DNA of 20,534 nucleotides, taken from IMG/VR virus record IMGVR_UViG_2737471824_000003; one strand, 5' to 3'. The notes beneath the pieces are model-generated. The model was not told the DNA's origin and did no database searches. It was given only the letters and a program-made list of their open reading frames with translations. The position numbers and the translations under genes were made by a program. The stretch comes from a virus (taxonomy: Duplodnaviria; Heunggongvirae; Uroviricota; Caudoviricetes). Below, piece after piece: positions 612 to 19,435 of this stretch (position 1 is its first letter; every line of letters begins with the position of its first letter).

Positions 612-1280
612 ATGGTGAAATTAATGAAAAAAAACACAGATGATGGGGCTAAAATTTACACACCACTTACCCTAAAGCTTTATGACTGGTGGGTTTTGGG
701 AGTATCAAATTGGCTTGCATGGGGATGTCCTACAAAGGAACACCTTCTTCCACACTTTCTGGAACATTTAGGTAACAACCATCTGGATATTGGTGTTGGA
801 ACTGGGTTTTACCTTACTCACGTACCTGAGAGTAGTCTGATATCTTTAATGGATTTGAACGAAGCTAGCCTGAACGCGGCATCTACAAGGGCTGGGGAAT
901 CAAAAATTAAACATAAAATTAGCCATGATGTTTTTGAACCTTATCCCGCGGCGTTACATGGTCAATTTGATTCCATTTCCATGTTTTACCTTCTTCACTG
1001 CCTGCCTGGAAATATAACTACAAAAAGCTGTGTAATACGCAATGCGGCGCAGGCCTTAACTGACGATGGAACTCTATACGGAGCCACAATTCTTGGCGAT
1101 GGAGTTGTGCACAATAGCTTCGGTCAAAAACTGATGCGCATTTACAATCAGAAAGGCATCTTTTCAAACACAAAAGATTCCGAAGAAGGCTTAACACATA
1201 TACTCTCAGAGCATTTCGAGAATGTTAAAACCAAGGTTCAAGGTACTGTAGTAATGTTTTCCGCTTCAGGGAAAAAATAG
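612..1280 (+). CDS. class I SAM-dependent methyltransferase, 222 aa (possible start at ATG 624); AT-rich moron
   Basis: Motif I LDIGVGTGFYL (hh-D-h-GxGxG) followed by an acidic beta-2 end (LMDLNE), i.e. a Rossmann-fold MTase. No DPPY/NPPY or PCQ motif, so not an obvious DNA MTase. Markedly AT-rich relative to the flanking tfa/stf, opposite strand to the tail genes, and bracketed by the duplicated tfa 3' segment and hairpins. Confidence 0.8.
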   Translation: MVKLMKKNTDDGAKIYTPLTLKLYDWWVLGVSNWLAWGCPTKEHLLPHFLEHLGNNHLDIGVGTGFYLTHVPESSLISLMDLNEASLNAASTRAGESKIKHKISHDVFEPYPAALHGQFDSISMFYLLHCLPGNITTKSCVIRNAAQALTDDGTLYGATILGDGVVHNSFGQKLMRIYNQKGIFSNTKDSEEGLTHILSEHFENVKTKVQGTVVMFSASGKK

Positions 1281-1285
1281 CATCC

Positions 1286-1500
1286 AACCGCAGCACGTTC
1301 TTGCTTAAGACGTGCTGCGGCATAATCCCAATGATTACTCCCTGACAGAGTTCGTAGGCCACTCAATATCAGGTGCAGTTGATGTATCAACACGGTTCAG
1401 CAACACCCGATACTTTTTCCAGGCTTCCAGCAATGAGGTTTCTTCCTCCGTTGCAATTTCCAGATCTGCAGCATCCTGAAGCGGCGCAATATGCTCACTG
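1286..1500. repeat. direct repeat copy B (3' end of intact tfa plus terminator hairpin)
   Basis: Partner of 236-451. Confidence 0.75.
1288..1320 (-). terminator. stem-loop downstream of tfa (11-bp perfect stem, 11-nt loop)
   Basis: ccgcagcacgt/acgtgctgcgg perfect inverted repeat immediately 3' of the tfa stop on the minus strand and 3' of the MTase stop on the plus strand. The T-tract is weak, so possibly bidirectional or Rho-assisted. Confidence 0.45.
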
Positions 1501-1919
1501 GCTACCTGCATCAGGTTGTTTTTTGTTTCTTCCGCCTCCCGGATCCGGAACAGTTTTTCTGCTTCCGTATCCTTCACCCAGGCTGTGCCGTTCCACTTCT
1601 GAAACTCCCCTTCCGGCGATAACCAGGTAACATTTTCCGGTAACGGACCGAGTTCAGAAATAAATAACTCGTCCCCTGACGCTACGTCATAAACCGTTTT
1701 CCCCCGATGGTCTTCAACGAGATGCCACGATGCCTCATCACTGTTGAAAACAGCCACAAAGCCAGCAGCAATATCTGGTGGTGCAATATCGGTACTGTTT
1801 GCTGGCAGACCTGTATGAGGCGGAATATATGCGTCACCTTCACCAATAAATTCATTAGTTCCGGCCAGCAGATTATAAATTTTTATGGTCCGTGCTTGTT
1901 CACTCATTCTGAATGCCAT
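1335..1919 (-). CDS. tfa: tail fiber assembly protein Tfa (194 aa)
   Basis: Near-identical from N to C terminus to the lambda Tfa as I recall it ([49 protein letters not shown]...), same length. The ATG overlaps the stf stop (TAATG). Confidence 0.95.
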
Positions 1920-4900
1920 TATGCAAGCCTCACAATATAGTTAAATGCGATGTTTTTGACGGTGTTTTCCGCGTTACCCGCAGCGTTAACGGTGATGGTG
2001 TGTCCATGTGAACCAATCGCAACGGAGTGCGTATGCGCACCAATACCTACAGTATGTGCATGTGCGCCAGAACTTGCTGCAGTACCAGACAGCGAGTGGG
2101 TATGAGCACCTGCTGACTGTGTCTGAATACGTTGATAATACGATCTATAGGAAGAAGTCTCCGGGCTTACTTGATACTGTGAATTCTGGACATAAGTGAA
2201 CCCACCGCCATCATAAAATGCTAACGCAGAACCGCCGCCTCCTGGCCAACGAATACCATTACCATGAGTATGAACACCGGCAGACCCCGTAGAGCCACTC
2301 AGACTGTGCGTATGCGCCCCGGTGTTATTCGTGGATTTAGTGCCGTAATCAAACGACGATGTGGTTTTCGTCCCTAAATCCGTACTGGATGCGCTGGCGC
2401 TGTGGGTGTGCGATTTAATGCCGTCCTGTTCCTGAGACAATACGGCCCGGCCACTGGCGGGTTTGCCCTTGATTGTCCAGCCGCGCATATCTGGAATAAC
2501 ACCTGAAGGATAGGCAATAGCCAGTTTCGGATATGCTGCCTTATCAAACGTCTGCCCCTGCATGATTGCATAACCTGCAGGTGGTGTATCTGATGGCCAC
2601 GGCAGCGGAACACCTGGCGGAAACGCTTCAATATTTGCCGAGCCGTCAAATTTTACGCCGTTAATTGTCCTTGCAGTTTGCAATTTGGTTGCTGTGCTTG
2701 CATTACCCGATAAAGATCCAGTGATACCACCACTCGCGTTTAATTTAGTTGCAATTGTAACATTGCCAGTATGGTTACTAATTATAAACGGCCTTAAGCT
2801 ATTGTGCGTACCAAGACTGTTACCCGAATCTGTCAACATAAAATATGTGTTTGATCCATCATTTCGGATAAAGAATCCATAGTTGCCATAGGCAATACGC
2901 AGACCATTTGCTGACCTTGAAATAACCTCACCAGCAGCAGTTAAACCACCTGAAAGAGTCCCTCCAGTTAATGCCAATGCCCCAATATTTGAAGGGGTCA
3001 ATGTGATATTTGCACTACCATCAAATGACACACCGTTAATCGTTCTGGCTGCCTGAAGTTTCGTGGCGGTCGCAGCATTACCTGTAGTGTTTTGATTACC
3101 GGTAGCGTTGACTCCAGGCAAGTTGATATCTGCCGATCCATCAAATGCCACGCCCCCAATCTTACGTGCTGTCTTGATCTTGGTCGCAGTATCTGCGTTT
3201 CCGGTCAAATTACCAGTAACACTACCACCAACTTTTAGTCCATTACCGATGGACACCAACCCTGATCTTAAGTTTATAGAGAATGGTCTTAATGAACCGA
3301 TGTCTCCATTTTCCCCCTCCCCTTCATTAGTCGGAATAAGATGAAGATGATCTTCGGAACGCCTAAAAATAAGGCCAAAGGCTTGGTTGAATATTCGAAG
3401 AGCATTTATCGTGCTGATTTTTAACTGCCCTCCCATTGTGTCGCCAGTTTTTTGAACTGAACTATCTTTAACAGTTTTAACTGCCTTTGGCGTTGCCGCC
3501 AGCTTTTCACTGGTGCTGTTTGTTGCACTGCTGAGCTGTACTATCCCCTTTTTCGTCGTGCTCGCATCCTCCAGCGCTACGGCGGATGCAATATCCTCTG
3601 CCCGTTTTGCTGCTGTCTCGGCGCGCGTTGCCGCGGATTCAGCAGCAACTTTGCTCTGAGATGCAGCCGTCGCACTGCCTGCCGCCTCTGATGCTTTCGT
3701 TGTTGCTGTCGTGGCACTACCTTTCGCTGCTGACGCTTGTCTGGTCGCCTCATCTTTTGAAGCAGACGCAGATGATGCCGATGACGCCGCTGAACTGGCT
3801 GACGATGCGGCTGCCGCCTTAGAGGAAGCAGCATTGTCTGCTGAAGTCTTTGCATTTGTTTCAGAGGTTTTTGCTGCAGAAGCAGACCTCGCTGCTGCAG
3901 TGGCTTGCTCAGTGGCTTTGCCAGCCTTCGTTGTGGCTGTTGAAGCGGATGATGCGGCGCTTTCTGCCGATTTTCCGGCGGCGGTGGCACTGGCTGAGGC
4001 CTGCCCGGCACTTGTTGACGCGGCACTGGCAGATAATGCAGCCGCTGTTTTTGAACCTGCCGCAGCTGAGGCGCTCTGTCCCGCTGCTGTTTCAGAAGAC
4101 TTAGCGTTCGTCTCGGACGTTTTTGCCGCCTTCGCGGAATTTCCTGCCGCCGTTGCCGAGGAAGCTGCACTACTGGCACTTGATGATGCATTCGTTTCTG
4201 AAGATTTCGCTGCCTCTTTTGAGGCCGCCGCACCCCGTGCCGAGGTGGCAGCTTCTGACGCCTTCGTGGTCGCTGTGGATGCAGAAGTGGCTGCCGATTT
4301 TTGTGATGCTGCGGCATTCGTTTCTGACGTTTTCGCGGCACTGGCGCTGGTAGCTGCCGCGCTTTTTGATGACTCTGCAGCAGCAGCACTTTTTGCTGCT
4401 TCACGGGCCTTTGTCGATGCCGTTCCTGCGCTGGAAGACGCTGACTGAGCCGACGACGCGGCCTGTCCGGCTGACGTGCTGGCGGCACGTGCTGAGGCTG
4501 CAGCATCGGTTGCATGAGTTGCCGCCTCGCTGGCTGATGCACTGGCATCGCTGGCTGATTTTTTCGCGGCTGCCGTATTCTGTGCAACCGCGGAGGCGTT
4601 ACGTGACACCTCTTCCACCATCTGCTCAAAGCGGCGCAGTGCCTCCGGTCGGACATCATCCTCCGTCATGGCACCGAGAAAATCATTCAGCGTACCTGGT
4701 CTGGAACCTTCATAGACGGTAATGGTCCCGGCATGTGAAGGCGGAAAACCTTCAACCAGCAGGGTGACGCTGTACTGACCATGCTCAACATCCATGCTGT
4801 AACGTCCGGCTTCATCCGGATTTTCAGAGGCCACCGTGTTCACCACCACCGTGCTGCTGGTTCGTCTGGCCTTCAGCACAATGGTGCAGTTCTGTACTGG

Positions 4901-4945
4901 TTTTCCTGTGCCATCTTTAAGCACGCCAGAAATTTTTACTGTCAT
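1919..4945 (-). CDS. stf: side tail fiber protein Stf (1008 aa)
   Basis: N-terminal ~120 aa match the lambdoid Stf N-domain ([21 protein letters not shown]...[14 protein letters not shown]). Followed by a ~330-aa Ala/Ser/Thr-rich low-complexity shaft, three tandem GNxxTATKLQxARTINGVxFDGSANI fibre repeats, and a His-rich C-terminus (GAHTHSLSG...[14 protein letters not shown]...NYIVRLA) typical of receptor-binding tips. Confidence 0.95.
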
Positions 4946-4958
4946 ACTTTTCCACCAA

Positions 4959-4992
4959 TAAAAAAAGCCCGCAGCAGTGACGCCACGGGCTT
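4959..4992 (-). terminator. Rho-independent terminator upstream of stf
   Basis: On the minus strand: aagcccg-(14-nt loop)-cgggctt followed by TTTTTT, lying between the terminase remnant and the stf RBS (ggtgga). Confidence 0.45.
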
Positions 4993-5169
4993 CAGGACAG
5001 TGTAACTTTACGTTTCCTCAAACGCAGTTCACCCCATAAGGTGGATGAACCTGCGTATCATAACAATATTTACAGAAGATAAATCGGCGTCTGTTGTCAG
5101 AAACGGTATCCGATACCAACAATAAATGCATCCGTTCGCCAGTCGCCACTACCGGAACCTTCATAAGCG

Positions 5170-5418
5170 TTATTCGGTGTAGGCTTCCACCAGTAACTCG
5201 AGTGCACGCGCATCAAGCTGAGAAATGATCCCTTCCGCATTCAGTTCTTCCGCCATTCGCCTGAACCAGTACTTCCCCTGCGACCCTAAATGTTGCGGAA
5301 TTTTAGGGAGACATTTTTCATCCTTTTTAGCGGTTTTTTTTGGGTCTTTAACGGGGCGCTTTGAGGGGTTGCCTCGTATCAAATGCAGGCGTGGCGGGGT
5401 TTTCAGGGGTCCTGACAT
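5170..5418 (-). pseudogene. terminase small subunit, P27 family, C-terminally truncated (82 aa)
   Basis: N-terminus carries the P27-family signature (..LIRGNPSKRPV..). Full-length members are roughly twice as long. The ORF ends ...LELLVEAYTE* about 220 bp upstream of stf, and no large terminase follows. Confidence 0.6.
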
Positions 5419-5565
5419 AATCGGTTTTACCTATCAATCATTTAATCACATTCCAAAAAAAAGTTTTCAAACCTGCGGCGATGCGAGGAAAGGTCAGGCG
5501 GCGGTACTGAGCAGCCAGGGTTGCAGAGATTTGACCTGCCCCTCCCCTACAGATGGGAACTGTTA

Positions 5566-5916
5566 TCAATTGATGCGTTCGCGCGCTGTTTTTGCTTTAT
5601 GACAGGGCCAGCACAGACTCTGCAGGTTACTGTCTGCATCCGTGCCACCATGAGCTTTCGGAATGATGTGGTCCACAGTTCTGGCTTCAACGGCTCTCCC
5701 ATTGCGCAGGCAGTTCTGACACAGATGATTATCACGCTTCAGTATGCGCGCACGTATGGCATCCCATTTCGAGCCATAGCCACGCTGGTGGCGGCTCAGT
5801 CCGCGTTGATGCTGTACCCATCCTTCGCCACGATGTTTATCGCAGTAACCAGAACTGTCTGTGGTTGTACCTGCACATCCACGCTTACGGCAGGCGCGTG
5901 GGATTCGTGGGGGCAT
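5566..5916 (-). CDS. HNH endonuclease (phage packaging-associated, HK97 gp74-like)
   Basis: C-terminal HNH motif DHIIPKAHGGTDADSNLQSLCWPCHKAKT plus Cys-rich zinc ribbon (CRKRGCAGTT..GYCDKH). Start placed at ATG 5916, which has GGAG 5 nt upstream; the track ORF extends to 6015 but lacks an RBS there. Sits immediately upstream of the P27 small terminase, the classic HNH-terS arrangement. Confidence 0.85.
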   Translation of the reverse strand: MPPRIPRACRKRGCAGTTTDSSGYCDKHRGEGWVQHQRGLSRHQRGYGSKWDAIRARILKRDNHLCQNCLRNGRAVEARTVDHIIPKAHGGTDADSNLQSLCWPCHKAKTARERIN

Positions 5917-6138
5917 ATGTACTCCAATGAAGAAGCCACCGACATAGCCTCCTCCATTCATAGTGAAACTATTTTCATCTACCCAGTAATGAATTCTTTG
6001 TAGAGTTGTGATCAATACAACTCACTAATGGAGAGGCTTGTCCAACACGTTGGACAAGTTTCCTGTTTGATTTACTGGACACTATAGAAGGACAGAATGC
6101 CTTCATCACTCGAATAACATCAATTAAGGAGGTTCAAC

Positions 6139-6261
6139 ATGTTTCATTCCACAAATCATCAGGCTGTAATTATGGCTGCATCAGCTTGTGCCACAGACCT
6201 TTTCCGCTTCACTTTGAGCCTGATTCATTTCTACCTGACCGGCTCGCCTCTATCTTTTTAA
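6139..6261 (+). CDS. small ORF (40 aa) with consensus Shine-Dalgarno, upstream of bor
   Basis: TAAGGAGGT 5 nt before the ATG. Product MFHSTNHQAVIMAASACATDLFRFTLSLIHFYLTGSPLSF has a hydrophobic C-terminus. Below the 60-aa cutoff of the ORF track. Confidence 0.3.
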   Translation: MFHSTNHQAVIMAASACATDLFRFTLSLIHFYLTGSPLSF

Positions 6262-6441
6262 TCCCCGCTTTATCCAAATTGCATTGCCAGAATGCCGACA
6301 ACAGACTGACATTCAAATCCTGACTACCTCCGATAGGCTGAGCATCCACCTATATAGTTTTAATTTTCATCAATCCATTTAACTATCGTTTAATTGTTGT
6401 CACATAGGATTCTGCCGTTTTTAACAATGCAGGATAATAAG

Positions 6442-6735
6442 ATGAAAAAAATGTTGTTTTCTGCCGCTCTGGCAATGCTTATTACAGGATGTGCTCAACA
6501 GACGTTTACTGTTGGAAACAAACCGACAGCAGTAACACCAAAGGAAACCATCACCCATCATTTCTTCGTTTCGGGAATTGGACAGGAGAAAACTGTTGAT
6601 GCAGCCAAAATTTGTGGCGGCGCAGAAAATGTTGTTAAAACAGAAACCCAGCAAACATTCGTAAATGGATTTCTCGGTTTTATTACTTTAGGCATTTATA
6701 CTCCACTGGAAGCGCGTGTGTATTGCTCACAATAA
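6442..6735 (+). CDS. bor: Bor/Iss-family outer-membrane lipoprotein (serum resistance), 97 aa
   Basis: Near-identical to lambda Bor as recalled (MKKML..ALA.LITGCAQQTFTV.NKP.AV.PKETITHHFFVSGIGQ.KTVDAAKICGGAENVVKTETQQTFVNG.LGFITLGIYTPLEARVYCSQ). Lipobox LITGC; AGGA RBS at 6432-6435. The track ORF starts upstream at 6394. Confidence 0.95.
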   Translation: MKKMLFSAALAMLITGCAQQTFTVGNKPTAVTPKETITHHFFVSGIGQEKTVDAAKICGGAENVVKTETQQTFVNGFLGFITLGIYTPLEARVYCSQ

Positions 6736-6745
6736 TTGCATGAGT

Positions 6746-6763
6746 TGCCCATCGATATGGGCA
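6746..6763. terminator. hairpin between convergent bor and Rz stops (candidate bidirectional terminator)
   Basis: tgcccat-cgat-atgggca perfect 7-bp stem located exactly between the bor stop (6733-6735) and the Rz stop (6767-6769). Confidence 0.35.
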
Positions 6764-6766
6764 GCT

Positions 6767-7228
6767 CTATCTGCACTGCTCATTAATATACTTCTGGGTT
6801 CCTTCCAGTTGTTTTTGCATAGTGATCAGCCTCTCTCTGAGGGTGAAATAATCCCGTTCAGCGGTGTCTGCCAGTCGGGGGCTGGTTGCATTATCCACGC
6901 CGGAGGCGGTGGTGGCTTCACGCACTGACTGACAGACTGCTTTGATGTGCAACCGACGACGACCAGCGGCAACATCAGCGCGCAGAGTTTCATTTTCAGC
7001 TTTCGCATTGGCTAATTCTCTCGAGTACTTTGCATCGAGTGCAGCAACATCACGCTGACGCTGCTGCATGTCAGCGATGGTGGCGATCGACTGCTTCAGC
7101 TCACTGACTTTTTTATCACGCTGTTCTTTGTAGGCGATGGCGTTATCACGGTAATGATTGACCGCCCACGACAGGCAGACGATGATGCAGATAACCAAAG
7201 CATAAATAATCGCGGCGACTCTGCTCAC
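6767..7228 (-). CDS. rz: i-spanin Rz (153 aa from GTG 7228; track ORF extends to TTG 7243)
   Basis: Matches lambda Rz (..[34 protein letters not shown]...[63 protein letters not shown]). The GTG start overlaps the endolysin stop (GTGA). Confidence 0.9.
6826..7008 (-). CDS. rz1: o-spanin Rz1 lipoprotein (60 aa), embedded in the +1 frame of Rz
   Basis: [55 protein letters not shown]: lipobox plus proline-rich core as in lambda Rz1; nested inside Rz. Confidence 0.9.
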
Positions 7229-7758
7229 TGCTCTATCCCCCAACAGGCTAATGCGCTTTCCTGGTCACGACGAATAACCTGTCCATAGCAGTTATTTGAA
7301 CGTATGCGGCAATCGCGCCCACCATCTTTTATCCACCAGCGAATCGCCTCGCATGCGCCCTTACGATCACCGGCATTCAGCCGCTTATAAAACGTCGACG
7401 GGAAACACTTACCGGGGCCAATGTTATAGGGACAGAATGACGCTATACCCGCTTTTTGTGGTTCGGTCAGTAGTACTTTAATATTGCGCTCCACCCATGC
7501 CAGCGCCTTATCACGCTCAATGGCGTTGACCTGGTCGCATTTTTCCTTCGACAGTTTCATACCGGGAAAAACGGGTTTTCCATCCACTATCGTGGCACCC
7601 CGACAGATGGTCCAGATGCCGGACCCATCGCGGTATGCCGTTGTGTGGTTACCTTCTTTTTCATCCAGAAACTGGTCGAGAATATCAGGCGCGGGCGCAC
7701 CGACGGCAATCAGTGCCAGAACGGCAGCCGACAGGCCGTATCTGATTTTTGCGTTCAT
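7225..7758 (-). CDS. R: SAR endolysin (phage lysozyme, P21 R-like), 177 aa
   Basis: N-terminal signal-anchor-release segment ([18 protein letters not shown]) followed by the T4-lysozyme-like catalytic triad context (E..D..T: [22 protein letters not shown]). Directly followed by Rz/Rz1. Confidence 0.9.
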
Positions 7759-7821
7759 GGATATTTATCAGGATTTATCGGTTTCTGCCCACGGACAGGT
7801 TTATCTGTTCCGGTCAGTGAC

Positions 7822-8172
7822 TTAAGGTTGTGATTCCGGAGGAGTCTTCAGAGAACCAGTAATTCTTCCCGGTAGCTTTCCTTTGTAGGTTATCCATACA
7901 TTCTGCGCCTCTAAAATTACGGGGCGCTTTTCCGGCGACTGCTCATCCCCTTCACATAACCCGGCAGCAACATCCAGGAAGACCTGTCTGATGCTCATTC
8001 TGGCTGCTGCCTCATAAAACTCCAGCGCGGCACCTTCAACACGGTCCAGCGAGATGTCCAGGTCAAAAATTTCACCGTCAAAGCGTTTTTTGTCCCGCAA
8101 CGCTAAAGTTACCGTAACTTTATTCTCAAAATTGCGGATCCCTTTCACAATCAGTTCATAGTTTTGAGTCAT
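7822..8172 (-). CDS. hypothetical protein between holin and endolysin (possibly DUF1327/YdfR-like), 116 aa
   Basis: Complete ORF with ATG and an upstream GGGGAG. Its position matches ydfR in K-12 Qin (essQ-ydfR-rrrQ). Assignment is by position and vague sequence recollection only. Confidence 0.45.
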   Translation of the reverse strand: MTQNYELIVKGIRNFENKVTVTLALRDKKRFDGEIFDLDISLDRVEGAALEFYEAAARMSIRQVFLDVAAGLCEGDEQSPEKRPVILEAQNVWITYKGKLPGRITGSLKTPPESQP

Positions 8173-8176
8173 TGAA

Positions 8177-8392
8177 TTACTCTCCCCGTGCCGCCTTACG
8201 ACGGTCCTCTCTGATTTTGAAATACAGGTTAGTCAGATATGTCAGCAGCCCAAACAGCAGACTCCCCAGCACGCCTATTGCCGCCCACTGAGACGGGGAA
8301 ACCCTGTCCAGCAACTGCAGGAACCAGTAGCCCGTTCCCACCGCTGACGTGGTGTATGACACACCTGTTGTGATTTTTTCCATCTGGTCCAT
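8177..8392 (-). CDS. S: pinholin (phage 21 S21-like) with dual-start motif, 71/68 aa
   Basis: [71 protein letters not shown] closely resembles P21 S21. Two Met codons three codons apart (8392 and 8383), as in holin/antiholin pairs. The track ORF (to 8497) is over-extended upstream. Confidence 0.85.
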
Positions 8393-8699
8393 ACCCCGTC
8401 TCCCGTTATCCGGAAGCTGACAACAATAAAAAAGCCACCAGTTAACTACTGATGGCTCTGATAACTCATGCAAGCGTCTCAGACGATCCACTGACACTAC
8501 CGGTGAGTTTAACGATACCTTCCATTTGACTGGCTCACTTTTTATGATGATGCCGGTGTATTTATCTCCAGCACCAGACTTTCTATCTCAACGCCATACG
8601 TTGCATTTTTGGTAATATCCGTCAGCGTCAGTGCATTTAGTCCCACTGCCAGACCGTCTTTTATGGCCTGGAATGCCGGGCCAGTACGATGACGTAGTA

Positions 8700-8888
8700 T
8701 CACTCCGGCTCAGTTGCACCACTGACCACCACATCACCTTCTGCTGCAATCGCCTGCATCAGGGTATAAGGGGTTATGGCCACCGGACTACCAAACGGCT
8801 GCCAGCCCTCTTTCAGTTTATGTGTCAGCTTTTCCGCAAGATCTGACGGCGCCGCCGCCCTGACAACATCATAGTGTTTAAATGCCAT
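8700..8888 (-). CDS. DUF1737-like small protein (62 aa)
   Basis: MAFKHYDVVRAA.PSDLAEKL...KEGWQPFGSPV... pattern recalled from DUF1737 proteins that often sit near lambdoid lysis genes. Start taken at ATG 8888. Confidence 0.5.
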   Translation of the reverse strand: MAFKHYDVVRAAAPSDLAEKLTHKLKEGWQPFGSPVAITPYTLMQAIAAEGDVVVSGATEPE

Positions 8889-9148
8889 GGTTCTTTCCAC
8901 CATCTGAAAAATAATTCTTTAAAATACCTGACATGTAATACAGAAAAAACACAAAACCATACCTTAAATAAAAACTTGATTATCAAGCAGATATGCATGG
9001 ATAAACTACAAGACGAGATATAAACCACCCTGCATTTAAATAAACAATAAACAACATCAGAAAAATAATTCTGCTCTATGGTTTACATTCAAAAATATCA
9101 TTTATACTTTTCAGAACATCACCAGCAAGGCATAAACAAGGAAACTAA

Positions 9149-9484
9149 ATGAAGTGGATTGTGATTGATACAGTTATCCAGCCATCATGCGGAATATCTT
9201 TTTCAGTCATATGGAGTAAAGTAAAATTAATAATCTGGTATCAATCGGATGCTTTCTTACCTCCTGAAAGTATATTTACACTGACTCACACAGGTATCAT
9301 GCTCAATAACAAAGTGCTACCTGTAACCATTTACAACGTAGTACCATTCAATAAAACATTCTGGAATTTAATCAAAAACAGCCAGGAATGCCCTACAAAT
9401 ACAGATAACGTATTGAATGAATGCTTTAATAACCGTTGCATTCTGCAAATATGTCCTTATGGACTAAAACAACAAAGTCCATAA
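9149..9484 (+). CDS. hypothetical protein, 111 aa, AT-rich cargo gene with rare-codon bias
   Basis: ATG preceded by AAGGA (caaggaaactaaATG). Six Cys. Five AUA (rare Ile) codons among 111. On the strand opposite to the late operon, inside the AT-rich island between the tRNAs and the lysis genes. No recognisable family. Confidence 0.45.
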
Positions 9485-9518
9485 GGAGTTTACTCACATC
9501 TGACAAAATCAATATAAA

Positions 9519-9540
9519 CAGCCCCTCCGGAGAGGGGCTG
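9519..9540 (-). terminator. Rho-independent terminator (9-bp perfect stem, 4-nt loop, T-rich tail on minus strand)
   Basis: cagcccctc-cgga-gaggggctg. On the minus strand it is followed by TTTATATTGATTTT. Sits between the convergent cargo ORFs. Confidence 0.5.
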
Positions 9541-9931
9541 GAGAGTGGCGCTATGTGCCATTGCATGGTGCCGGGTGCCTCCCGGTGAATTCAGTACCAG
9601 CACCTGAATCCGCGATTATCCCATATACCTACTCGCTGATTGCCCCTCCGCACAGGGGGATTCACCATGCCAGTTTCTTTTAACAAACTCCCCGCAAACC
9701 AGACAACAGTCAACCGCCTGAATTGTGAAGTATTTAAAAATTTCTCCCGCTAACTGATACCCGGCTAACAGTCTGGCGTTTTCTTTTTCAGCAACGGGAA
9801 AGCAACAACCACCACACCCGCCACCAGCACACTGTCAGCCAGCACTGACATTATCCGGCTGCTGCAATGCCATTCACAAAAACAGTAAGCAATCACTTTT
9901 TACCGTAACAGGTGATAATCCAGATATGTAT

Positions 9932-10285
9932 CTACCCCAGATGAGTAATCCGAAGTTCATCCATACCACAGGTCCTGGCTATTCTGTTGTACTCCTGAAC
10001 AAGAGCAAATAATTCTGAATTAGCAACCATGAACTCATCGCAAACCCTCTGTATAGCATCACTATTCAGAATAATAACGTCTCTTCCCGAAAGACGATCA
10101 GGAGCACAGAACAAAACTGTCAAACGGCTGAAGGCCTTTGCTCGTGCTGCATTGACTATATCAATACGCTGCCTAAGGATGAAACACCCCGACGCCTCAT
10201 CAATATTCACTCTACCCACACCATATGAATGATAAATATTTAATGCTGAAAAAACCATTAGACCGTATAACAAACACTCAATCAA
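9932..10285 (-). CDS. hypothetical protein (117 aa from TTG 10285; first ATG at 10258 gives 108 aa); possibly degenerate
   Basis: Only long ORF in this part of the island, with protein-like composition (..VLFCAPDRLSGRDVIILNSDAIQRVCDEFMVANSELFALVQEYNRIAR..). Neither candidate start has a convincing SD. No family recognised. Confidence 0.35.
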   Translation of the reverse strand: MIECLLYGLMVFSALNIYHSYGVGRVNIDEASGCFILRQRIDIVNAARAKAFSRLTVLFCAPDRLSGRDVIILNSDAIQRVCDEFMVANSELFALVQEYNRIARTCGMDELRITHLG

Positions 10286-10311
10286 TACTTAACAGAACTT
10301 TTATTTTTGAC

Positions 10312-10326
10312 AAACATATTATGTTT
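10312..10326. promoter_or_regulatory. 15-bp perfect palindrome AAACATATTATGTTT (candidate operator) in the promoter region of the 9932-10285 ORF
   Basis: Arms aaacata/tatgttt verified by reverse complement. Embedded in a longer imperfect dyad (ttgacaaacatattatgttttcaa) between the tRNA-Arg gene and the ORF. Confidence 0.35.
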
Positions 10327-10395
10327 TCAACAATATCCTGAGCCAGGTATATTCCAGTATAAGGCTCTGCCGGAAGGAATCTGGAAGAATGAATA

Positions 10396-10472
10396 TGGCG
10401 CGCTGTACTGGATTCGAACCAGTGACCGATTGCTTAGAAGGCAATTGCTCTGTCCGGCTGAGCTAACAACGC
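10396..10472 (-). tRNA. tRNA-Arg (anticodon UCU), 77 nt including CCA
   Basis: Reverse complement folds as a cloverleaf: acceptor GCGTTGT/ACAGCGC (one G-U pair), D-stem GCTC/GAGC, anticodon stem ATTGC/GCAAT with loop CTTCTAA, T-arm ACTGG-TTCGAAT-CCAGT, 3' GCCA. Differs from chromosomal argU as recalled, so phage-encoded. Confidence 0.9.
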
Positions 10473-10572
10473 TGAATACCGATAATGGACCGCCATCGGG
10501 GACCCGCCCCCGCACCAACAACCCTGTTATCGTGTCGTCTGCTCTTCCTGATAAGCTAATGGCGGTTTGTGA

Positions 10573-10648
10573 TGGTGGCCCTTGCTGGATTTGAACCAGC
10601 GACCTGGCGATTATGAGTCGCTCGCTCTCACCACTGAGCTAAAGGGCC
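10573..10648 (-). tRNA. tRNA-Ile2 (anticodon CAU, lysidine type; ileX/ileZ-like), 76 nt including CCA
   Basis: Reverse complement GGCCCTTTAGCTCAGTGGTGAGAGCGAGCGACTCATAATCGCCAGGTCGCTGGTTCAAATCCAGCAAGGGCCACCA: perfect 7-bp acceptor stem, anticodon loop CTCATAA, T-loop TTCAAAT. Very close to E. coli ileX as recalled. An initiator or elongator Met identity is not excluded from sequence alone. Confidence 0.85.
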
Positions 10649-10687
10649 GGGAGCAGAATAATAACGGTCCGTAATTAATTCCGCAAT

Positions 10688-10711
10688 AAAAAACCCGCTC
10701 GGCGGCGGGTT
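10688..10711 (-). terminator. candidate tR' terminator downstream of Q
   Basis: On the minus strand: aacccgc-(loop)-gcgggtt followed by TTTTTT, about 50-80 nt downstream of the candidate late promoter and upstream of the tRNAs. Confidence 0.5.
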
Positions 10712-10758
10712 GTAGAAACTCTTCTAACGTCAGGCATAAAAAGCCCATCATTATGACG

Positions 10759-10786
10759 AATTTACCACAGATTCCGGAAAAATCAA
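10759..10786 (-). promoter_or_regulatory. candidate late promoter pR' (qut region)
   Basis: On the minus strand: TTGATT (-35), 16-nt spacer, TG-n-TAAATT (extended -10), immediately 3' of the Q stop as in lambdoid late regions. Confidence 0.4.
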
Positions 10787-10791
10787 CCTTG

Positions 10792-11613
10792 TTACCTAGT
10801 TACCTTTTTTAACTGCCGCTCAGCCCATGCTTCTTCAATATCAAACCGGGTCACCAGCGCATCATAGAATTTCTTAACTGTTTTTTCCCATGACGCGCGT
10901 GTTATCTGGTTTGTCACCTCGCATATAGCATTAAATGCCTCCGTTGATGGTAGTCTTTCATAGCCACGACCACCACAACGCTGGCAGTCTCTGATAACAG
11001 GCATACCACGTTTTACCGACTCTTCACGGTGAATGGCGACACCACGCCCACGGCAATCCTTACAGGCGGTGGAAACCTCACCCTTTCCGCCACACTCCGG
11101 ACAGGCAACTTTTACCACCTCCCTGACTTTTTTCCATTCTTCCCAGTAAGACGGATACACACCTTTCGTACACTTTGCCCATACCGGCGGCTTACCATCC
11201 GGATACTGGACCTTGTTTGTAAAAACTATGCTTTCAATAAATTTTTCCCCATAGCAACAAGGGCACTGCTTTTTACTCGCTGCGCTGCGGGCATAATCCT
11301 CAAAAGCATACGAAGCCATAATGCGCATCACTACCGGTTTTATTTCTGCCGGAAGTTTTCTCAACGCCGCCACACGATCGCACCGACTGAGTGCATAATC
11401 TGCCAGTAATTCTGTTGCCCGCGCCCTGTCATTCATACTGATGCCCATTTTCCCCAGGAACGCAGAAAAACCCATCTCAGCCCGATTCTGTGTCATGCCC
11501 TGCGCGGCCATCACATCAGTGATACTCAGCGCATCTTTTGACGTTGAGGCCGATGCATCGGTCAGGCCAGGGGATTTTGGGGAGTAGTATTTCGGTAAAT
11601 CTTCCAGTTTCAT
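10792..11613 (-). CDS. Q: late-gene antiterminator Q (Phage_antitermQ-type), 273 aa
   Basis: N-terminus MKLEDLPKYYSPKSP... and multiple CxxC zinc motifs (CPCCYG, CPECGGKGE, CKDCRGRG, CQRCGGRG). Positioned immediately upstream of the promoter/terminator/tRNA/lysis block and downstream of rusA. Confidence 0.75.
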   Translation of the reverse strand: MKLEDLPKYYSPKSPGLTDASASTSKDALSITDVMAAQGMTQNRAEMGFSAFLGKMGISMNDRARATELLADYALSRCDRVAALRKLPAEIKPVVMRIMASYAFEDYARSAASKKQCPCCYGEKFIESIVFTNKVQYPDGKPPVWAKCTKGVYPSYWEEWKKVREVVKVACPECGGKGEVSTACKDCRGRGVAIHREESVKRGMPVIRDCQRCGGRGYERLPSTEAFNAICEVTNQITRASWEKTVKKFYDALVTRFDIEEAWAERQLKKVTR

Positions 11614-11627
11614 TTTTTGACCTGCTC

Positions 11628-11990
11628 TTAATGCATTATGGGGTAAATCTTCACCCCCAGACGTCCACCAGATACTGGCTGACCACGAACGATATTGATT
11701 TCATCAAACTGCTCATCGTCCATTAACACTCCCGCATGCGTCAGCGCATCCAGCGGTGCTTTCAGGATATTGTCCAGGTCGCGACGACGCTTATCCGGTG
11801 GCTCTGCAATCACCTTTATCGCCAGCCTTCCGGACAGGTTTAATTTCAGCCGCTGCTGGCGAACAATTAGCACCACATCACGGCGATAACGCTTTCCGGC
11901 CTCCGAGATGAAATACGTATTGCCATGACGTCGCCAGTAGGTATTCACCGTCGGCGGGTAAGGCAAAACAAATTCTATGCGTTCAGTCAT
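11628..11990 (-). CDS. rusA: Holliday junction resolvase RusA (120 aa)
   Basis: Conserved core ..PPDKRRRDLDNILKAPLDALTHAGVLMDDEQ.. (RusA catalytic Asp cluster). Typical nin-region position upstream of Q. Confidence 0.9.
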   Translation of the reverse strand: MTERIEFVLPYPPTVNTYWRRHGNTYFISEAGKRYRRDVVLIVRQQRLKLNLSGRLAIKVIAEPPDKRRRDLDNILKAPLDALTHAGVLMDDEQFDEINIVRGQPVSGGRLGVKIYPIMH

Positions 11991-13490: not shown

Positions 13491-13646
13491 TTACTCCTCA
13501 GGTTCGTAAGCTGTGAAGACAGCGACCTCCGTCTGGCCGGTTCGGATTCGTACCTCGCAGAGGTCTTTCCTCGTTACCAGTGCCGTCACTATGACGGTTA
13601 AACAGATGACGATCAGGGCGATTAACATCGCCTTTTGCTGCTTCAT
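13491..13646 (-). CDS. hokD: Hok/Gef-family type I toxin (HokD/RelF-like), 51 aa
   Basis: Translates to MKQQKAMLIALIVICLTVIVTALVTRKDLCEVRIRTGQTEVAVFTAYEPEE, a canonical Hok (TM helix plus conserved Cys, C-terminal periplasmic tail). Below the ORF-track size cutoff. Confidence 0.9.
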   Translation of the reverse strand: MKQQKAMLIALIVICLTVIVTALVTRKDLCEVRIRTGQTEVAVFTAYEPEE

Positions 13647-13904
13647 AGCCTGCTTCTCCTTGACCTTTCGGTCCGTAAGAGGCTAATCTCTATGTGTCGC
13701 ATAGATATGGCCTCAGATTAATGTTAAGCGTCTTGCAGGACGCGTAATGTTAACTGGGGCTTTTCTCTATCTGCCTTTTGGTGTTCATGCCTGAGACAGA
13801 TAGCCTCAAGCACCCGCAGTAATTCTACTTAACTAAGATTTCCCCGCAAACCGTTTTTGTCCGGCACAGTAAATATCCAACTAAACCAATGGCGTTCGCT
13901 GTAT

Positions 13905-14313: not shown

Positions 14314-14571
14314 TTAGTTGTTCATAAAAGTGCACAGCTTTAACCAGTTCTTCTGATGTAACCGGGACTGGCGGGGCAGTGAATAAGGCCTGAATTTCAT
14401 AGTTCGGCCTGTCGTTACAATCCTCTTTTTTCGGTACATATTTCCAGTCACCAGACCACTACTTCCCCTGAAAGTCCGTAACGCCTTTTTTTTCACGTAG
14501 CGATATCGCCATGCCACTGTTTTTGCTTGCCCCGCCGTTTCATGCCCTTCCTGATAATTAACCTCGCTCAT
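14314..14571 (-). CDS. basic small protein (85 aa in the 0 frame) containing an A_AAA_AAG slippery heptamer; a -1 shift would extend it to ~105 aa (stop at 14255-14257)
   Basis: ATG overlaps the stop of the upstream 58-aa gene (ATGA). In-frame heptamer A AAA AAG at 14425-14431 (minus-strand sense). The -1 frame is closed by TAG 11 codons upstream of the site and open for 56 codons downstream, with a more protein-like composition (..TSEELVKAVHFYEQLKRENPPASG..). Confidence 0.45.
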   Translation of the reverse strand: MSEVNYQEGHETAGQAKTVAWRYRYVKKKALRTFRGSSGLVTGNMYRKKRIVTTGRTMKFRPYSLPRQSRLHQKNWLKLCTFMNN

Positions 14572-17822: not shown

Positions 17823-18242
17823 ATGGACAAATATGAATTTAGACGACAGCAACTCATCAAAATTCGTGATGAGAAATGCGATGGTAAAGCGGTTAACGTG
17901 GCCAGAAAGATCGGGCGCGAGCCTTCTTATGTATCAAGAATGTTGTACCCAGAGGGGAAAAAGGGAAAAAAACGGATCGCTGATGATATGGTGGAGATTA
18001 TCGAAGAGTCCTTTGGGTTACCCCGGGGATGGATGGATGGTATCGTTTCATCATCAACGAACACAGCCTCCAGTTATGAAACAAGGGTTCTAACGCCACG
18101 ACAACGTATTTTTTTAGATCTCTTAGACGAACTGCCAGAAAGTGAAGCGGATAAATTATTAAAAACTCTTGAAGAGAAAAAACAGTATTACAATATGATC
18201 TACGAAGAAATCCGTAAAAAGAAAGCACAAAACGCATCATAG
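17823..18242 (+). CDS. prophage repressor (CI-like, HTH_XRE-type), 139 aa
   Basis: HTH ..KAVNVARKIGREPSYVSRMLY.. near the N-terminus. Divergently transcribed from the cro-like gene and flanked on both sides by related palindromic operators. Confidence 0.7.
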   Translation: MDKYEFRRQQLIKIRDEKCDGKAVNVARKIGREPSYVSRMLYPEGKKGKKRIADDMVEIIEESFGLPRGWMDGIVSSSTNTASSYETRVLTPRQRIFLDLLDELPESEADKLLKTLEEKKQYYNMIYEEIRKKKAQNAS

Positions 18243-19382: not shown

Positions 19383-19435
19383 TTTCTGGTGACGTTTGGC
19401 GGTATCAGTTTTACTCCGTGACTGCTCTGCCGCCC
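19383..19435 (+). ncRNA. dicF: DicF small RNA (antisense regulator of ftsZ and other targets), 53 nt
   Basis: Sequence TTTCTGGTGACGTTTGGCGGTATCAGTTTTACTCCGTGACTGCTCTGCCGCCC followed by a T-tract. Matches K-12 DicF as recalled; located between ydfC and dicB. Confidence 0.8.

Follow-up and report, generated by a model that had tools for sequence, protein, structure and literature searches.

The locus examined here raises the question of how the small terminase gene (terS) of a lambdoid prophage came to lie close to the side tail fibre gene (stf), with terL and the head and tail-shaft genes missing. The locus forms part of the window, by which we mean the whole stretch of 20,534 nucleotides that was analysed (IMG/VR record IMGVR_UViG_2737471824_000003). 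A sequence-only reading of the window had called the arrangement a deletion scar, and this is borne out when the window is aligned with an intact prophage of E. coli KMi006. It is very probable that one deletion of ~17.9 kb in a lambdoid prophage fused terS to lom, upstream of an intact stf. The features on which the argument turns are collected in Table 1.

Table 1. Coordinates of the features flanking and forming the junction, in window positions.
Feature	Position	Strand	Description
Tail fibre assembly gene tfa	1335-1919	minus	Intact, 194 aa; Pfam Caudo_TAP 1.4e-43
Side tail fibre gene stf	1919-4945	minus	Intact, 1008 aa
Native lom terminator	4954-4993	minus	13-bp G+C-rich hairpin and T-run in the lom-stf spacer (terminator scan)
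3' remnant of the Ail/Lom outer-membrane protein gene	5097-5168	minus	72 nt covering the final 23 codons and the stop; not in frame with terS'
Deletion junction	5168-5171		lom identity ends at 5168; terS identity continuous from 5171
Truncated P27-family terS (terS')	5170-5418	minus	Codons 1-82 and a junction-made TAA stop
HNH-terS spacer with probable cos-like packaging site	5419-5565	minus	147 bp; conserved block ~5494-5551
HNH endonuclease gene	5566-5916	minus	Intact, 116 aa; packaging-associated type just upstream of cos and terS

The intact sibling and the deletion junction

A search with the lysis-HNH side of the window returned many prophages at 99.7-99.9% identity. The best of these is an intact prophage of KMi006 (NZ_CP091691.1, 1.48-1.52 Mb, locus L007), which is situated at the same ompW site; its relatives with an intact module include JNEC-KY204, PD23 and MINF_1A. 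The stf and HNH proteins of KMi006 are identical to those of the window, and the lysis cassette, iss, Q and the tRNAs are common to both. Window positions 3074-5168 align with L007 positions 1-2095 at 99.95% identity, and positions 5168-11989 align with L007 positions 19998-26820 at 99.3% identity. The interval missing from the window is L007 2096-19997, a stretch of 17,902 bp. It contains terS codons 83-160, terL, the portal, prohead protease and major capsid protein genes, the genes for the connector, head closure, gp10-like, tail completion and major tail proteins, the chaperones and the tape measure, an M-like protein (annotated “phage tail protein”), L, K, I and J, and lom codons 1-176. 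The head, tail and packaging-motor genes are thus missing from the window, while the collinear KMi006 prophage has them between the same flanks. The absence of terL, portal, head and tail-shaft genes, as asserted in the sequence-only reading, was confirmed: no terL, portal, head, capsid or tail-shaft gene was found in the window or in the prophage of a public genome that is 99.99% identical to it. KMi006 differs from the window in its replication and immunity region, which belongs to another mosaic and is 84-96% identical or unalignable, and its prophage is best regarded as a sibling and not as the literal parent. The prophage of strain 2-331 was rejected as the pre-deletion reference in favour of that of KMi006: it occupies potB instead of ompW, and in the lom-stf part it is only 87.6% identical to the window.

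The junction was read by three-way in-register comparisons, with strains 2-331 (L002) and NCCP15648 (L003) and then with the intact sibling. Alignment with an intact relative had been recommended for mapping the breakpoint, and the KMi006 comparison places it at 5168-5171. On the plus strand, the window reads ...TTCATAAGC GT TATTCGGTG..., the lom parent reads ...TTCATAAGC AAGGTCAAT..., and the terS parent reads ...GTGATGCCG G TATTCGGTG...; the BLAST alignment breaks at query positions 569/572, and the 40-mer of the junction is CCGGAACCTTCATAAGCGTTATTCGGTGTAGGCTTCCACC. Base-by-base comparison reveals that C5168 and G5169 (CG) match the terS side too, so that the microhomology does not exceed 1-2 nt. 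The base T5170 is absent from both parents and turns terS codon 83 from TAC (Tyr) into a TAA stop. This base may be a filler, a later point mutation, or a prior nonsense mutation followed by a deletion that ended 1-2 nt away, three origins that are indistinguishable. The same junction is present in the window and in two independent complete genomes, and it is therefore not an assembly artefact.

Two routes to the deletion were considered and rejected. For a homology-mediated event, the 40 nt on either side of each breakpoint offer only a 7-mer direct repeat (offset ~15 nt, away from the junction) and a 6-mer inverted repeat, no more than chance would give. For an IS-mediated event, the junction carries no IS end or foreign sequence, and at most 1-2 nt are unexplained. 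The sharing of no more than 1-2 nt, the single non-parental base and the lack of an IS remnant suggest that illegitimate, homology-independent recombination caused the deletion, and not an exchange between repeats or between prophages.

The sequence-only reading had proposed an independent or mosaic origin. In a mosaic, the HNH-terS' side and the lom-stf side would derive from two prophages, in tandem or at separate loci, that were joined by inter-prophage recombination. Strain NCCP15648 (NZ_CP009050.1, 20498-40569) lends this some substance, as its ompW prophage has a lom-stf-tfa end 99.8% identical to that of the window and, in place of a P27/HK97-type one, a lambda-type head and terminase module with gpFI, a head decoration protein and a Nu1/A-type terminase. 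At the level of sequence, it shows whole-module swapping of the structural region at the ompW site. However, the one KMi006 prophage provides both flanks (99.3-99.95% identity; stf and HNH proteins identical) with order and orientation unchanged, so that a deletion within a single parent is enough; the junction also lacks the homology for a homologous inter-prophage exchange. A mosaic origin is therefore very unlikely.

The proposed independence from Qin, in contrast, stands. Qin of E. coli K-12 was said to have the same kind of defect with another terminase family, and the parallel holds: a small-terminase gene lies against side-tail-fibre genes, terL and the head and tail genes are missing, and the gene set essQ/ydfR/rrrQ/rzpQ, ydfT(Q), ydfU, hokD, dicF/dicB and ydfA-C resembles that of the window. 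Nevertheless, the terminase of Qin is the lambda Nu1-type NohA, whereas that of the window is P27-type. The stfQ gene of Qin is truncated (320 aa) and overlaps nohA, whereas stf of the window is intact and the right breakpoint falls in lom. Qin is integrated at ydfJ/rspB and the window prophage at ompW. The differences in terminase family, right breakpoint and integration site indicate that the two scars are independent events.

The packaging remnant and the fibre genes

The HNH product, of the HK97 gp74/phiP27 L34 kind, matches the Pfam HNH model over positions 1-47 of 47 (E=1.9e-16, 60.4 bits) and aligns end to end with PDB 5h0m, a solved phage HNH endonuclease (E=1.3e-14). Since the latter alignment begins at residue 1, the ATG at 5916 is taken as the start codon. 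The protein is RefSeq WP_001135103.1, and the intact KMi006 prophage carries the same accession. HNH genes beside cos and terS are a widespread arrangement (PMC3592412). The order of HNH, 147-bp spacer and terS' agrees with that of phiP27 (NC_003356), in which cos is annotated, and of Shigella phage SfIV, and the HNH and cos region is 79-82% identical to these phages. Both of them are complete phages, whereas the window keeps HNH, the cos-like region and 82 terS codons. HK97 likewise has an HNH gene (gp74) at the genome end, beside cos and the genes for gp1 (TerS) and gp2 (TerL). In this phage, gp74 stimulates cos cleavage by the terminase, for which TerL is required and TerS acts as guide (PMC11331095). 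A corresponding stimulation of terminase-dependent cos cleavage may be a property of the HNH protein of the window; the comparison is functional only, and the TerL motor is absent from the window.

Alignment of the spacer maps the annotated cos-site of phiP27 onto window positions 5494-5503 and the right end of the SfIV genome record onto position 5511. The block GGGGAGGGGC(A/G)GGTCAAATC, which adjoins the phiP27 cos and the SfIV end, is conserved in the window, phiP27 and SfIV. The 10-nt cos core differs from that of phiP27 (CGCCGCCTGA vs CGCCCGCCCC). A cos-like site is thus probably retained in the spacer, an assignment that follows the annotation of these relatives.

In the 82-aa terS' product, residues 49-81 match only positions 2-34 of 98 in the Terminase_4 model (PF05119), and the score of 22.1 bits is below the gathering cut-off of 24.7 bits. 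The 160-aa terS protein of the siblings, in contrast, covers positions 2-97 at 89.7 bits, and its first 82 residues in KMi006 are identical to the whole of terS'. RefSeq labels the stump a pseudogene, “missing C-terminus”. Judged by these alignments, terS' is a fragment of a P27-family member and not a member itself. The gene following terS in the siblings is terL, whereas terS' is followed by the lom remnant and stf. The ORFs, the Pfam matches and the KMi006 comparison all agree with the earlier description of a packaging module reduced to HNH and the first 82 codons of terS, and the question whether 82 aa might be the full length is answered by the 160-aa siblings with their full Pfam coverage. 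A phmmer search against the PDB returned no solved homologue of the window terS. DNA binding by HK97 TerS needs the oligomerisation core (residues 24-124) and the C-terminal helix (residues 125-145) (PMC11331095). By this analogy, which is a functional one only, a stump of 82 residues would have lost terS function and, with TerL absent, would be unable to package DNA.

On the fibre side, the lom remnant translates to AYEGSGSGDWRTDAFIVGIGYRF*, the C-terminus of the 199-aa Lom of KMi006. The full Lom of NCCP15648 matches PF06316 over positions 1-199 of 199 (414 bits), and the lom of the window is far from such a full beta-barrel ORF; RefSeq labels it a pseudogene, “Ail/Lom family, missing N-terminus”. 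The terminator sequence, whose hairpin and T-run span 4993-4964, is identically placed downstream of the intact lom in NCCP15648 and KMi006. The ~220 bp that separate terS' from stf consist of ~72 bp from the end of lom and, for the rest, of the native lom-stf spacer. The sequence-only reading was hence right in placing a terminator and then stf ~220 bp after terS, but terS does not abut stf, as the lom remnant lies between them and the terminator is that of lom.

The stf product contains a full phage_tail_N domain together with Gp34_trimer, Collar and Phage_fiber matches in Pfam, and is RefSeq WP_000216487.1, identical to the KMi006 protein. We also note two ORFs inside stf in other frames or on the other strand, 3577-4659 (minus strand, 360 aa) and 3711-4448 (plus strand, 245 aa); these are by-products of the Ala/Ser-rich low-complexity region of stf (~aa 120-470), not genes. 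The 3' end of tfa is duplicated (236-451 vs 1286-1500, 88% identity), and a class I SAM-dependent methyltransferase gene in the opposite orientation (612-1280, plus strand) is located between the two copies. The duplicated ends and the methyltransferase gene look like the remains of an alternative tail-fibre/tfa cassette with an inserted cargo gene. An Rfam match above the gathering threshold, IS009 RNA, falls inside tfa (1378-1576, minus strand).

Distribution of the junction and the intact module

A 202-bp junction probe, counted at a coverage of at least 80%, was found in 2 of 5,426 complete E. coli genomes, at a single place in each. The deleted 17.9-kb module is present at a coverage of at least 80% in 631 of the 5,426 genomes, where the median number of matching places is 3. 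The scar is a rare lineage marker, in contrast to the common intact phage.

The window is 99.99% identical to the first of the two junction genomes, E. coli WP2-S18-ESBL-08 (NZ_AP021946.1), with 1 SNP between them. The sole structural difference is an IS2 in the public genome at window 14372-14376, a 5-bp overlap of the flanking matches. The second genome, MLI105 (NZ_CP116929.1), is 99.98% identical (3 SNPs) apart from an ISEc12 at window 8506-8513, an 8-bp overlap of the flanking matches. Both target sites are empty in the window; the deleted prophage is thus known from three isolates, of which the window is the least decayed. Since the three isolates share the junction and differ by 1-3 SNPs and private insertions, the deletion is older than the IS2 and ISEc12 insertions and has been inherited. 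In both public genomes, the prophage is bounded on the left by a 3' fragment of ompW, with yciE and the trp operon adjoining. The other end in NZ_AP021946 is xis-int, and the MLI105 stretch that was examined reaches as far as IS2 and the exonuclease gene, before int. In KMi006, int adjoins an intact ompW. By its boundaries and its missing late genes, the element resembles cryptic lambdoid prophages of the Qin/Rac/DLP12 kind.

Another IS2 is located past the window end in both junction genomes (L001 37751-38979; L005 38535-39763), where it interrupts the exonuclease gene after ~920 nt. In K-12 Qin, ydfE is interrupted by IS2E at about that position (compare L008 20844-21549). The matching positions could stem from a common ancestor or from gene conversion among Qin-like prophages that occupy different loci.

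The abundance of intact relatives bears on whether the remnant could still be mobilised. HNH and cos might let an intact sibling phage, superinfecting or co-resident, package the element as happens with cos-bearing satellites: both the cos-like region and HNH are intact, and the 631 genomes above attest that sibling phages sharing this packaging module are common. However, the prophage measures ~24-26 kb and the intact sibling ~42 kb, so that a monomer would reach ~60% and a dimer ~120% of unit length, neither of them within the lambda range. Lambda cos packaging tolerates roughly 78-105% of unit length, a lambda figure that may not hold for the capsid of the intact sibling. In addition, the stump bears no sign of selection, the breakpoints look arbitrary, IS elements are accumulating, and neither junction genome has a second P27-type terS 5' end. 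Helper-dependent packaging is highly improbable on these grounds. If it were to occur, a ~25-kb prophage with iss, hok/sok, dicB/DicF and tRNA cargo would be mobilisable by intact siblings that share its terminase specificity, and the decayed prophage would be an accidental cos-satellite.

It is also conceivable that the prophage is rearranged and complete, its structural genes having moved elsewhere with particles still being made, given that most E. coli genomes carry several lambdoid prophages (the median of 3 matching places noted above). This was checked in the two public junction genomes, which are near-identical to the window. No structural genes lie within the prophage stretch of either, the 202-bp probe matches each at one place only, and neither is among the best 60 records with the full 17.9-kb module at an identity of at least 97.5%. 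These genomes contain no relocated near-identical copy of the module, and a rearranged but complete prophage is extremely unlikely. Diverged modules in their other prophages are irrelevant to the window element.

There is next to no chance that the 82-aa ORF encodes a true small terminase of reduced length or a protein that is functional in some other way. An open frame, a native start with ribosome-binding region and conservation in three isolates are in its favour, but these isolates are near-clonal and their agreement carries no weight. The protein is 100% identical to 160-aa proteins over their first 82 residues, its match extends over 33 of the 98 positions of the Pfam model and scores below the gathering cut-off, its stop was built at the junction, and no P27-type terS of ~82 aa was found beside an intact terL among the relatives examined.

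Course of the deletion and the genes retained

A single deletion within one prophage, the preferred reading, took the following course. The window contains a lambdoid prophage that is integrated at the 3' end of ompW and originally had a late region of the phiP27/HK97 type, ordered as lysis, bor/iss, HNH, cos, terS, terL, portal, protease, capsid, connectors, tail, tape measure, L/K/I/J, lom, stf and tfa. The deletion fused terS, 2 nt beyond codon 82, to the last 72 nt of lom, and the gene for the packaging ATPase was lost together with all head and tail-shaft genes. What is left is a prophage of ~24-26 kb without the means of particle production. Its Q-dependent late unit now comprises only holin-YdfR-lysozyme-Rz/Rz1, HNH, the probable cos, terS', 'lom, stf and tfa, and the early genes and the cargo (iss/bor, hokD-sok, DicF/dicB and two tRNAs) are kept. 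From the missing genes, no infectious particles would be expected on induction. The stf-tfa pair is plausibly still part of the Q-antiterminated late transcript, because it now lies ~0.6 kb downstream of HNH in the same orientation.

That lysis and cargo genes are kept, as had been proposed, is confirmed by Pfam and RNA gene detection. Pfam recognises an intact P21-type holin, lysozyme and Rz of the lysis cassette, the Q antiterminator and bor/iss. Retention of immunity is suggested by gene position only: a 139-aa ORF (17823-18242, plus strand) in the repressor position is divergent from a YdaS/cro-like gene and ydaT, has no Pfam match and is hypothetical in RefSeq.

Further observations concern the cargo. 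The iss/bor lipoprotein gene (6442-6735, plus strand; Pfam Lambda_Bor 3.7e-30) is situated between Rz and HNH and is transcribed against the late operon; upstream of its start, positions 6327-6400 are 98.6% identical to lambda. Rfam matches above the gathering threshold comprise STnc100 sRNA (9510-9699, minus strand), the sok antitoxin next to hokD (13644-13815, minus strand) and DicF sRNA upstream of dicB (19384-19435, plus strand). Two tRNA genes are present downstream of Q (10396-10472 and 10573-10648, both minus strand). One is Arg(tct), and the other has a CAT anticodon that ARAGORN assigns to Met and RefSeq to Ile (lysidine-type Ile2).

Surveys of prophage decay have reported that terminase, portal and structural genes are preferentially lost, that tail-fibre genes are kept and that transposases accumulate (PMC7744054). 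The pattern in the window is that of documented prophage decay. The scar itself is routine and already annotated, both stumps being RefSeq pseudogenes, and its significance outside annotation is small. For one prophage-inactivating deletion, the comparison fixes the exact breakpoints, the 17.9-kb content and a likely mechanism, and it reveals no new system. The KMi006 prophage and the window element form a clean before/after pair, which could be used to illustrate prophage decay or to type strains.
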